A stretch of DNA of 64,000 nucleotides from a virus: positions 1 to 64,000 of the IMG/VR virus record IMGVR_UViG_3300035703_000016; one strand, given 5' to 3'. The translations under genes and the position numbers were made by a program. Under the pieces are notes generated by a model, which saw nothing but the letters and a program-made list of their open reading frames with translations, did not search any database and was not told the DNA's origin. Positions 3,653-9,463 of the stretch are shown here, piece after piece; within the stretch, counting starts at the first letter, position 1; the number at the start of each line of letters is the position of its first letter.

Positions 3653-3734
3653 ATTGCTTTAGTTTTTTAGTACATTGTAAATATACAAGAAATAAACGAA
3701 ACTTTAAAGTTTTTTTCGGATATTTTTTTTCTTA

Positions 3735-4019
3735 CTATGAATTAAATATCCTCTCGTACTCAGTCACATCCTTTGGCACCCACCTCACACCGTTATATTT
3801 ATGTTCTATTGCTGGATATCTATGCGCTTCGTGATTAGTGGCACCATATATTGTTTCATTCATATCTGCGCAATATATCACGTATCCATATTCTTGCGCC
3901 CCTATTTGACAGTTCTGCTTCCAATGCTCTTTGGCTGCCTTGAGAGTAGAGAAGGTGCCACAGAATGAGTTATATTTACATTCTGCAACCAGGGTAAATA
4001 TTTGCTTTGTCTTTGTCAT
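3735..4019 (-). CDS. Hypothetical phage protein
   Basis: ORF preceded by a type-B leader and promoter box at 4062. Confidence 0.7.
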   Translation of the reverse strand: MTKTKQIFTLVAECKYNSFCGTFSTLKAAKEHWKQNCQIGAQEYGYVIYCADMNETIYGATNHEAHRYPAIEHKYNGVRWVPKDVTEYERIFNS

Positions 4020-4031
4020 TTGCTTTAGTTT

Positions 4032-4117
4032 TTTAGTGAATCAATATTCTATTGCTTCGTTGTAAATCTACTTAAAATAAACGACACTTTAAAGTTTTTA
4101 CTTAGATATTTGTTTTT
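4032..4117 (-). promoter_or_regulatory. Repeated early promoter with type-B hairpin leader
   Basis: tttagtgaatcaatattctattgcttc recurs at 6283, 6591, 10717 and (degenerate) 13243, always next to the TAnnTTTA box. Confidence 0.7.
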
Positions 4118-4355: not shown

Positions 4356-4462
4356 TAGTCAAGACAGGATTCGAACCTGTATGGGTGTCTGAGTCTTGGT
4401 TTGCAACCATCTCCCCCATCTGAATTTTACTCCCGAGCGTCTACCAATTCCGCCACTTGACC
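4356..4462 (-). tRNA. tRNA-like RNA (Leu-type D arm, canonical T arm, aberrant anticodon/variable region; isotype undetermined)
   Basis: GGTCAAG/CTTGACT acceptor stem, TGGCGGAATTGGTAGACGC D arm, ACAGG-TTCGAAT-CCTGT T arm; 107 nt. Confidence 0.75.
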
Positions 4463-9207: not shown

Positions 9208-9240
9208 TTTATTTTTGTTTTTGATTATTTATCGAATATA

Positions 9241-9463
9241 CTCTTTATATAGTAGTGTTGTAATAGTGTGTTGTTACACCAAAGGGTTATTATTTCTAAT
9301 AAACAACGGCATTTAGTCCGTCCAGTTTTTGCATTTACGAAGCCAGTATTTTCAGCCACTGTTACCATGCTGAACCTCACTTGATGTCTTCTGCTCACCC
9401 ACTCATTATATGATGGCTACTTTCAAGCCTACATTCTACTACAACAACTACTATAGCAAAGAG
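9241..9463 (-). ncRNA. Structured RNA resembling 23S rRNA helices 43/44 (L11-binding domain) with a large insertion
   Basis: Long terminal inverted repeat (9241-9266 with 9436-9463); AGAATGTAGGCTTGAAAGTAGCCATCATATAATGAG resembles H43; GGTGTAACAACACACT resembles H44. Confidence 0.7.

Follow-up and report, generated by a model that had tools for sequence, protein, structure and literature searches.

A phage-borne RNA family that copies the fold of the ribosomal GTPase-associated centre

In bacterial 23S rRNA, helices H43 and H44 and the top of H42 (positions 1051–1108; E. coli 23S numbering is used throughout) form the GTPase-associated centre (GAC), a 58–60-nt domain bound by uL11 and thiostrepton. 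The leaders of ribosomal protein (r-protein) mRNAs, such as the rplJ or L10 leader (RF00557), are off-ribosome RNAs that imitate an rRNA protein-binding site in the stalk-base region; they are cis-regulatory elements of cellular mRNAs, lie upstream of the regulated gene and imitate only the contact surface of the protein. Isolated GAC RNAs have been made in the laboratory as synthetic 'ribosome-in-pieces' constructs, which fold alone and bind uL11, thiostrepton and reportedly EF-G (PMC6239185; Munishkin and Wool 1997, as cited in PMC5829649). Among phages, tRNA arrays, tmRNA and the pseudo-ToxI antitoxin mimic of PhiTE (PMC3475682) are small stable RNAs that stand in for host translation or defence RNA, and none of these is known to imitate an rRNA domain. 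The present analysis concerns a 223-nt element on the minus strand (9463..9241) of a 64,000-nt stretch of viral DNA, positions 1 to 64,000 of IMG/VR record IMGVR_UViG_3300035703_000016 and hereafter the window, which was compared with these systems.

Together the ends of this element re-form the three-way junction of the 23S GAC and its tertiary fold, and the element is a member of a large phage-borne RNA family; on the evidence of its sequence, it is probably a gene for a stable non-coding RNA. It shares with the rRNA domain the secondary structure, the order of the elements, the tertiary signatures and the H44 loop GUAAYA. It differs from that domain in being phage-encoded, in lying outside an rRNA gene and in being closed by a plain helix of its own without kink-turn 42, and also in having a 117-nt domain with UUUG at 1090/1091, a U-A pair at 1090-1101, a U/U-A triple and an A-U junction pair. 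In contrast to the r-protein leaders it is a full copy of H43 and H44 with no Rfam match, of a kind often found among tRNA genes, and many family members lie inside tRNA arrays. Relative to the synthetic GAC RNAs it is a natural counterpart with an insert and a long stem. Larger relatives that carry a sarcin-ricin hairpin have the same GAC core, insertion point, UUUG linker and A1101 as the window copy, and differ from it by an insert of ~315–400 nt with (U)AGUACGAGAGGA.

An earlier reading of the letters alone (the sequence-only reading) had placed an rRNA-like RNA on the minus strand at 9241–9463, and both this location and every string it quoted were confirmed. The whole element folded at -66.8 kcal/mol (z = -3.9), and none of 200 shuffled sequences was equally stable. 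From 5' to 3' it consists of a stem strand, A1056, H43, AUAAU, GAGU, the insert, UUUG, GUGUAACAAC, ACA and the second stem strand. The long closing stem seen in the earlier reading pairs the 28-nt 5' strand (9436..9463) with the final 26 nt (9241..9266) and has 28 bp with two one-base bulges in the predicted fold; it is the analogue of H42, with 9436–9440 corresponding to 1051–1055. The H43 hairpin (9410..9434; 1057–1081) bears G1067 and U1072 in its loop UUGAAAGUA and is followed by the junction AUAAU (9405..9409; 1082–1086), an A-U version of the U1082-A1086 pair, and by GAGU (9401..9404; 1087–1090), the 5' strand of lower H44, which includes A1088. Block AGAAUGUAGGCUUGAAAGUAGCCAUCAUAUAAUGAGU precedes the inserted domain (9284..9400) and GUGUAACAACACAC follows it. 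The insert is closed by GGGU (9397–9400) and ACCC (9284–9287) as had been described, and its length, given earlier as ~110 nt, was measured as 117 nt, or 121 nt with the UUUG linker (9280..9283) that joins it to H44. The upper H44 hairpin GUGUAACAAC (9270..9279; 1091–1100) holds the U1092-A1099 pair that matches U1072, and ACA (9267..9269; 1101–1103) holds A1101, which pairs with U1090. These assignments were drawn from the predicted fold, the comparison with E. coli and the family pair counts given below. The segment had also been described as free of open reading frames (ORFs), which did not hold: a 57-codon GTG frame (9225..9398, minus strand) and two plus-strand frames of ~40 codons overlap the element, and nothing favours gene status for any of them.

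Over positions 1056–1103, with the insert removed, the element was identical to E. coli 23S rRNA at 35 of 48 positions, and 7 of the 13 differences fell in three compensated interactions (1072/1092-1099, 1082-1086 and 1090-1101). The E. coli sequence given in the sequence-only reading was correct, matching rrlH of MG1655 with GGCUU starting at 1062. A covariance model (R1) was built from 21 other phage elements, the window element being left out. R1 matched the window at 9257–9445 over the full model length (1–168) with 93.2 bits and an E-value of 1.7e-19, when search filters were switched off; default filters miss the element. Since the runner-up in the window reached 16.6 bits and the model had been built without the element, the match is not due to chance. 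Applied to E. coli 23S, R1 gave a sole match at 1046–1113 (57.5 bits), and in two Flavobacteriia 23S rRNAs it matched solely at the homologous place (48 bits).

Rfam 15, including its models for large-subunit (LSU) rRNA, the L10 leader, introns, ROOL and GOLLD, gave no match at the element at E ≤ 10; the LSU and L10-leader models were those that the sequence-only reading had put forward as a check, and an identity with an already described Rfam motif, which it had named as a refutation, was not found. Across the window no described large phage RNA, ROOL, GOLLD or intron reached the gathering threshold, and no LSU rRNA was found in the 158-kb genome. In one relative (L010) Rfam gave a weak LSU match that was confined to the GAC part. 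A fragment of an rRNA gene was ruled out by the lack of an LSU match in the genome and of an Rfam match at E ≤ 10 at the element, and a recent copy from the host was ruled out by the rRNA GACs of Flavobacteriia and Flintibacter, which diverge from the elements by features particular to each lineage.

A pattern for the H43 block gave 107 loci in IMG/VR, of which one was a true 23S rRNA and most others shared both blocks around a variable insert. This first pattern fixed most of H43, and the search was repeated from the 3' block (UUUG + GYGUAAYARC + ACAC), which gave 101 distinct cores unbiased on the 5' side. In these cores, counted with no regard to shared ancestry, the 1058-1080 pair was UA in 51, GC in 21 and AU in 18, the 1064-1074 pair was CG in 92, AU in 6 and GC in 2, and the 1063-1075 pair was GC in 96 and CG in 4; the 1057-1081 pair covaried as well. 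The pairs G1087-C1102 and U1090-A1101 were nearly invariant in the family, and the H44 loop residues G1093, U1094, A1095 and A1098 were invariant in the 5'-anchored set. In an alignment of 23 sequences 92.7% of cells paired, compared with 75.1% in shuffles, and the covariation score was 0.487 compared with 0.155, with none of 500 shuffles scoring as high; the score collapsed in slid controls.

The tertiary signatures of the GAC were also retained, namely U1060/A1088, the 1082-1086 pair, G1071 with G1091-C1100, and the 1072/(1092-1099) triple. A1088 occurred together with U1060 in 93 of the 101 cores, and both are present in the window copy. The junction pair 1082-1086 was UA in 60, CG in 20 and AU in 12, the last being the state of the window copy, and the 1092-1099 pair was C-G in 67, U-A in 27, as in the window copy, and U-G in 7. 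Position 1072 followed this pair: 67 cores have the triple C/C-G, 26 have U/U-A, 7 have U/U-G and a single core departs from the rule (Fisher p = 8e-26); the window copy has U1072 with U1092-A1099. In the ribosome, C1072/C1092 in cis Watson-Crick/Hoogsteen geometry, with N4 of C1072 to O6 of G1099, is a known contact by which H43 is fastened to H44 (PMC2952862). As the triple covaries and is the same as this contact, the family counts indicate selection on the three-dimensional GAC fold, beyond the two hairpins. The window copy holds the rarer states at several of these places (U1072 with U-A, A1082-U1086 and A1061). The sequence-only reading had seen H43, the junction and the H44 GUAA hairpin correctly ordered, and a phage stem where H42 would be, and this was borne out by the match of R1 to 23S rRNA and by the covariation of the family. 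The free-standing rRNA-mimic structure it proposed is strongly supported by the R1 match to 23S GACs together with covariation at the secondary and tertiary levels, and the relatives it expected to keep both blocks exist, more than 100 distinct ones holding the fold through compensatory changes.

There are also consistent departures from the rRNA. In stalk-base structures uL10 needs the kink-turn 42 region. The H42 analogue of the phage family is a plain Watson-Crick helix whose pairs covary freely, and the columns that are non-canonical in real rRNA, in the kink-turn 42 region of H42 (PMC1919483), are Watson-Crick and covarying in the phage RNAs. Binding of uL10(L12)n, one of the ligands suggested in the earlier reading, is unlikely because the H42 analogue lacks kink-turn 42. 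Position 1101 was A in 51 of 54 insert-bearing cores, and is U in rRNA and in an insert-less relative (L015). The A1101-U1090 pair looks like a reinforcement of lower H44, which closes the extra junction, and would therefore argue that the insert is retained. The elements do not copy host-specific features of the GAC in Flavobacteriia or in Flintibacter, where the element lacks the GAC peculiarities of its own host.

The insert was always found at 1090/1091 and was helix-closed, with UUUG or UUUA before position 1091 in nearly all insert-bearing relatives. It was 0 to 555 nt long (median ~160 nt), L015 being the one clear member without an insert, so the variability foreseen in the earlier reading is real; the inserts are in addition structured and partly conserved. 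The window copy belongs to a smaller insert class (with L060, L003, L230, L290 and L298) in which a GGUAAY-capped hairpin lies ~30 nt into the insert and is followed by RUAAAU. RNAalifold analysis of six relatives of this class revealed compensatory changes that back the closing helix and the GGUAAY hairpin. In the window copy this hairpin (9351–9374, predicted fold) has the heptaloop GGUAACA; the motif GUAAAUG follows within 9331–9339, and two further hairpins are predicted at 9305–9322 and 9286–9304. No similarity between the insert and 23S rRNA was detected by BLAST. The seven bases of the heptaloop are the same as those of a hairpin loop in 23S domain II (E. coli 712–718, also in Tenacibaculum), a weak post hoc match, of which ~0.7 are expected per 23S rRNA, that may be a shared loop fold or chance. 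In many otherwise different inserts the motif CACCCCGUAAnUGGUAAGG is placed immediately upstream of the closing helix's 3' strand (L315:1494-1688, L316:1501-1776, L007, L080, L086, L006 and L011); it is absent from the window insert.

The largest insert class has inserts of ~315–400 nt, a few being larger, that carry the exact sequence (U)AGUACGAGAGGA, identical to 23S 2653–2665, the sarcin-ricin motif (examples are L010, L020, L076 and L081). The stem of this hairpin covaries, occurring as UUCCA/UGGAA, UUACAU/AUGUAA, CUGCG/CGCAG and UCCC/GGGA. As read from these sequences, the larger relatives imitate both halves of the factor-binding site. An exact copy of the 12-mer AGUACGAGAGGA at 3749–3760 (minus strand), the only one in the window's genome against ~0.02 expected per genome, was considered as a separate sarcin-ricin RNA and rejected as chance; it lies in a 94-codon ORF (3735–4019) and has no fold (z = 0.05).

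The 3'-block pattern occurred at a minimum of 119 loci in IMG/VR (at least that number). When one genome each of 185,579 prokaryote species was searched there were 99 matches, and the 5' block was present in only 9 of these, which include Flintibacter muris DSM 110149 and two other isolates and are probably prophages. The Flintibacter muris locus (L185/L311, contig 4, ~81114–81301) is a full member with a core identical to that of viral contigs L004 and L082; it belongs to the genome of a gut bacterium in culture, is probably part of a prophage and may offer a laboratory system. Full, unannotated members were recognised by R1 in the cultured phages pf16 (91 bits), GAP32 (78 bits) and Aeromonas phage 4_4572 (66 bits), the pf16 element lying between tRNA-Asn and tRNA-Pro. 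BLAST matches to the family were also obtained in XacN1, Serratia BF, Erwinia jumbo phages and others. The window element itself gave no BLAST match in 50,697 phage records, and a pattern specific to its junction, GCCATCATATAATGAGT, yielded no close relative, only L087, L092 and chance matches in coding sequence. Full-text literature searches returned no published description of the family. A catalogue of 10,006 anonymous viral structured-RNA candidates, none of which overlapped rRNA predictions and in which no such motif is named (PMC10690425), may contain the family unnamed.

The genome that carries the window copy, that of an uncultured phage, is 158 kb long with 30% GC and direct terminal repeats, and encodes a family A DNA polymerase, DnaB, ribonucleotide reductase, thymidylate synthase and GroEL. 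Its nearest cultured phage is Flavobacterium phage immuto, with 54% DNA polymerase identity, and a host among the Flavobacteriia is accordingly likely from this comparison. The genes around the element are all co-oriented; they include an ORF of 46 aa, which stops 8 nt upstream, and one of 100 aa, which begins 34 nt downstream. Neither Pfam nor PHROG assigned a family of known function to these flanking ORFs or to the wider neighbours. As uL11, RelA_SpoT, GTP_EFTU (translational GTPase) and RtcB were all missing from the proteins encoded by this genome, any partner of the RNA would be a host factor or an unrecognised phage protein. In one large-phage lineage (sample 3300045988 and relatives; L105:704-2170, L098:6932-7984 and L055:4331-5997) the GAC-copy RNA has as its neighbours genes for TerD/vWA-TerF, a CCA-adding enzyme and a nucleotidyltransferase of the RlaP RNA-repair type.

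Other features of the genome lie away from the element. A cluster of 20 tRNA genes and a tmRNA gene occupies 138.5–147.2 kb (138589–147249, minus strand), and the tmRNA gene (139240–139714, outside the window) has an unusually long tag, AKVELSTWTVEDALAFVDGEYAVAA. At 4356–4462 (minus strand), far from this array, there is a tRNA-like gene of 107 nt that scored 36.3 bits with the Rfam tRNA model and has good acceptor, D and T arms; it has 39 nt in place of a 17-nt anticodon arm, was not called by ARAGORN, and may be a tRNA with an intron or some other anomaly. A 37-nt promoter-like repeat, AACTTTAAAGTnTCGTTTATTTnnnGTAnATTTACAA, occurs in the window at 3675–3711 and 4060–4096 (minus strand), where both copies lead into a shared leader ACTAAAAAACTAAAGCAA and an ATG, and a third copy with a few mismatches at ~156196 (minus strand) precedes another minus-strand gene. 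At its end the repeat has a TAnnTTTA box that resembles the -7 elements of Bacteroidota.

The maturation of the RNA was considered from the closing helix and its surroundings. Among 126 distinct elements the median helix length was 9 bp, and the 28-bp helix of the window copy was the third-longest. A same-strand tRNA gene lay within 150 nt of 51 of the 126 elements, and these were distributed as 0 of the 11 with a helix of 18 bp or more and 51 of the 115 others (Fisher p = 0.003). Upstream of the window copy a search for a promoter of its own gave only sigma-70-like matches that were weak and no better than in shuffled sequence, with no TAnnTTTG box (the Bacteroidota-type -7 element), and no convincing U-tract terminator flanks the element. 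RNase III cleaves rRNA precursors and T7 early transcripts at double-stranded stems. In tRNA arrays the element would be freed by tRNA processing, and its release from an mRNA would occur by double-strand cleavage at the long stem by an RNase III-type enzyme. The combination of a very long stem and no tRNA neighbours suggests the latter route, so that the window copy would probably be excised from a polycistronic transcript at its 28-bp stem.

The function that we favour, with confidence a little above even, is that the window RNA is a trans-acting, off-ribosome imitation of the GAC which has uL11 as its likeliest partner and is excised by an RNase III-type enzyme. The RNA would compete with ribosomes for whatever recognises the folded GAC. 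The GAC is the complete binding site of uL11. Because the 58–60-nt GAC reaches its tertiary fold in isolation and this fold is what uL11 recognises (PMC6239185), host uL11 would be the most economical, and the likeliest, direct partner. Either the RNA or an RNA-uL11 particle could divert a translational GTPase, a RelA/tRNA complex, a GAC-modifying toxin or a defence effector. EF-G reportedly binds oligoribonucleotides that represent the thiostrepton and sarcin-ricin domains (Munishkin and Wool 1997, as ref 27 in PMC5829649), the RelA-bound A/R tRNA stacks on A1067 and the RelA-tRNA complex touches both 1067 and the sarcin-ricin loop (PMC5829649), and the toxin Tre23 ADP-ribosylates H44 at 1095–1098 (PMC8661411). 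Titration of uL11, dampening of RelA and action as a decoy for GAC-targeting toxins are each possible candidate functions. At the level of the family, it is conceivable, at somewhat less than even probability, that phages of many bacterial phyla make a free-standing GAC RNA, or one of GAC plus sarcin-ricin loop, as a counter-measure that soaks up a defence or competitor toxin, or that weakens the stringent response by capturing uL11, RelA or translational GTPases.

The GAC fold could alternatively serve only as a handle, a stable, uL11-protected and nuclease-resistant frame for an insert that is the working part and acts on an unrelated target; in the window copy this working part would be the GGUAACA-loop hairpin and the hairpins that follow. 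The inserts give some grounds for this, being structured and conserved in part within classes, with compensated closing helix and GGUAAY hairpin in the window class, CACCCCGUAAnUGGUAAGG shared among other classes and a sarcin-ricin hairpin in the largest, over a length range of 0 to 555 nt. However, all members have in common only the GAC core, the UUUG linker and A1101, L015 has no insert at all, the conserved core extends beyond the folding residues to the exposed H44 loop (G1093, U1094, A1095 and A1098), and those inserts that can be read imitate a neighbouring ribosomal element and so point back to the same site. The handle explanation is therefore considered unlikely.

A cis-acting mRNA structure resembling an r-protein leader, through which host uL11 would control the translation or stability of the flanking 46-aa or 100-aa ORF, was given a still lower probability. 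It would account for the tight packing between co-oriented ORFs and for the lack of an obvious promoter, and rRNA mimicry by r-protein leaders is an established mechanism (PMC3616713). It does not fit the family as a whole, in which neighbours are unrelated, no neighbouring protein family recurs beyond single lineages and 51 of the 126 elements have a same-strand tRNA gene no more than 150 nt away, the one in pf16 even lying between two tRNA genes; at the window locus the flanking ORFs match no Pfam or PHROG family and the start codon lies outside the structure. Least probable of all, and by our estimate very improbable, is that the insert represents an intron or other mobile insertion within a piece of captured rRNA, its removal leaving a 58-nt GAC RNA, or that the element is a decaying, functionless fragment of host rRNA. 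The constant insertion point at 1090/1091 and the existence of the insert-less L015 would fit an insertion, but no intron or ribozyme family was matched at E ≤ 10 and group I and II introns are larger than 117 nt. The A1101-U1090 pair, the conserved closing helix and the UUUG linker look like adaptations to a retained insert, U1101 being found in rRNA and L015, and a decaying relic is excluded by the compensatory changes seen across more than 100 distinct phages. In lineage-specific details the elements are also unlike the rRNA GACs of their hosts.

Several points weigh against the trans-acting GAC imitation itself. Within the cell uL11 is mostly ribosome-bound, which poses a problem of stoichiometry for simple titration. 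The window copy cannot imitate the whole factor site, because it has no sarcin-ricin hairpin, the motif AGUACGAGAGGA being absent from its 117-nt insert. Position 1067, an A in E. coli that touches factors, tRNA and thiostrepton, was A in 67 and G in 30 of the 101 cores and is G in the window copy, where A1095, also a contact position for factors and thiostrepton, is present; the two Flavobacteriia 23S rRNAs examined carry G1067 as well, and the position does not track the host in a simple fashion. The neglect of shared ancestry in the covariation counts must be set beside these points. In the only related contig found through a neighbouring 204-aa protein (L113; flanks 75–83% identical in DNA), an unrelated 734-nt cassette replaces the 46-aa ORF, the element and the 100-aa ORF, with homology resuming at 9240, exactly at the 3' end of the element, and the motif is absent from Flavobacterium phage immuto. 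The element is therefore a dispensable accessory cassette. Across ~75 loci no conserved protein neighbour was shared beyond single lineages, and none pointed to a partner.

If the trans-acting reading is true, one of the ribosome's functional centres is copied in trans by phage-encoded RNAs, a mimicry that was not found described for any mobile element. The RNAs would add a layer of phage-host conflict at the GAC, a site already known as the target of thiopeptides and of Tre23, and under the counter-measure reading they would be a new class of RNA directed against the host, a parallel to the tRNA arrays of phages. They would also provide a compact RNA scaffold that folds by itself and tolerates an insertion at one point, and a natural test bed for the recognition of isolated rRNA domains by uL11, RelA and translational GTPases. 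Because members occur in cultured phages (pf16, GAP32 and Aeromonas 4_4572, with XacN1 and Serratia BF from BLAST), the question is directly testable.

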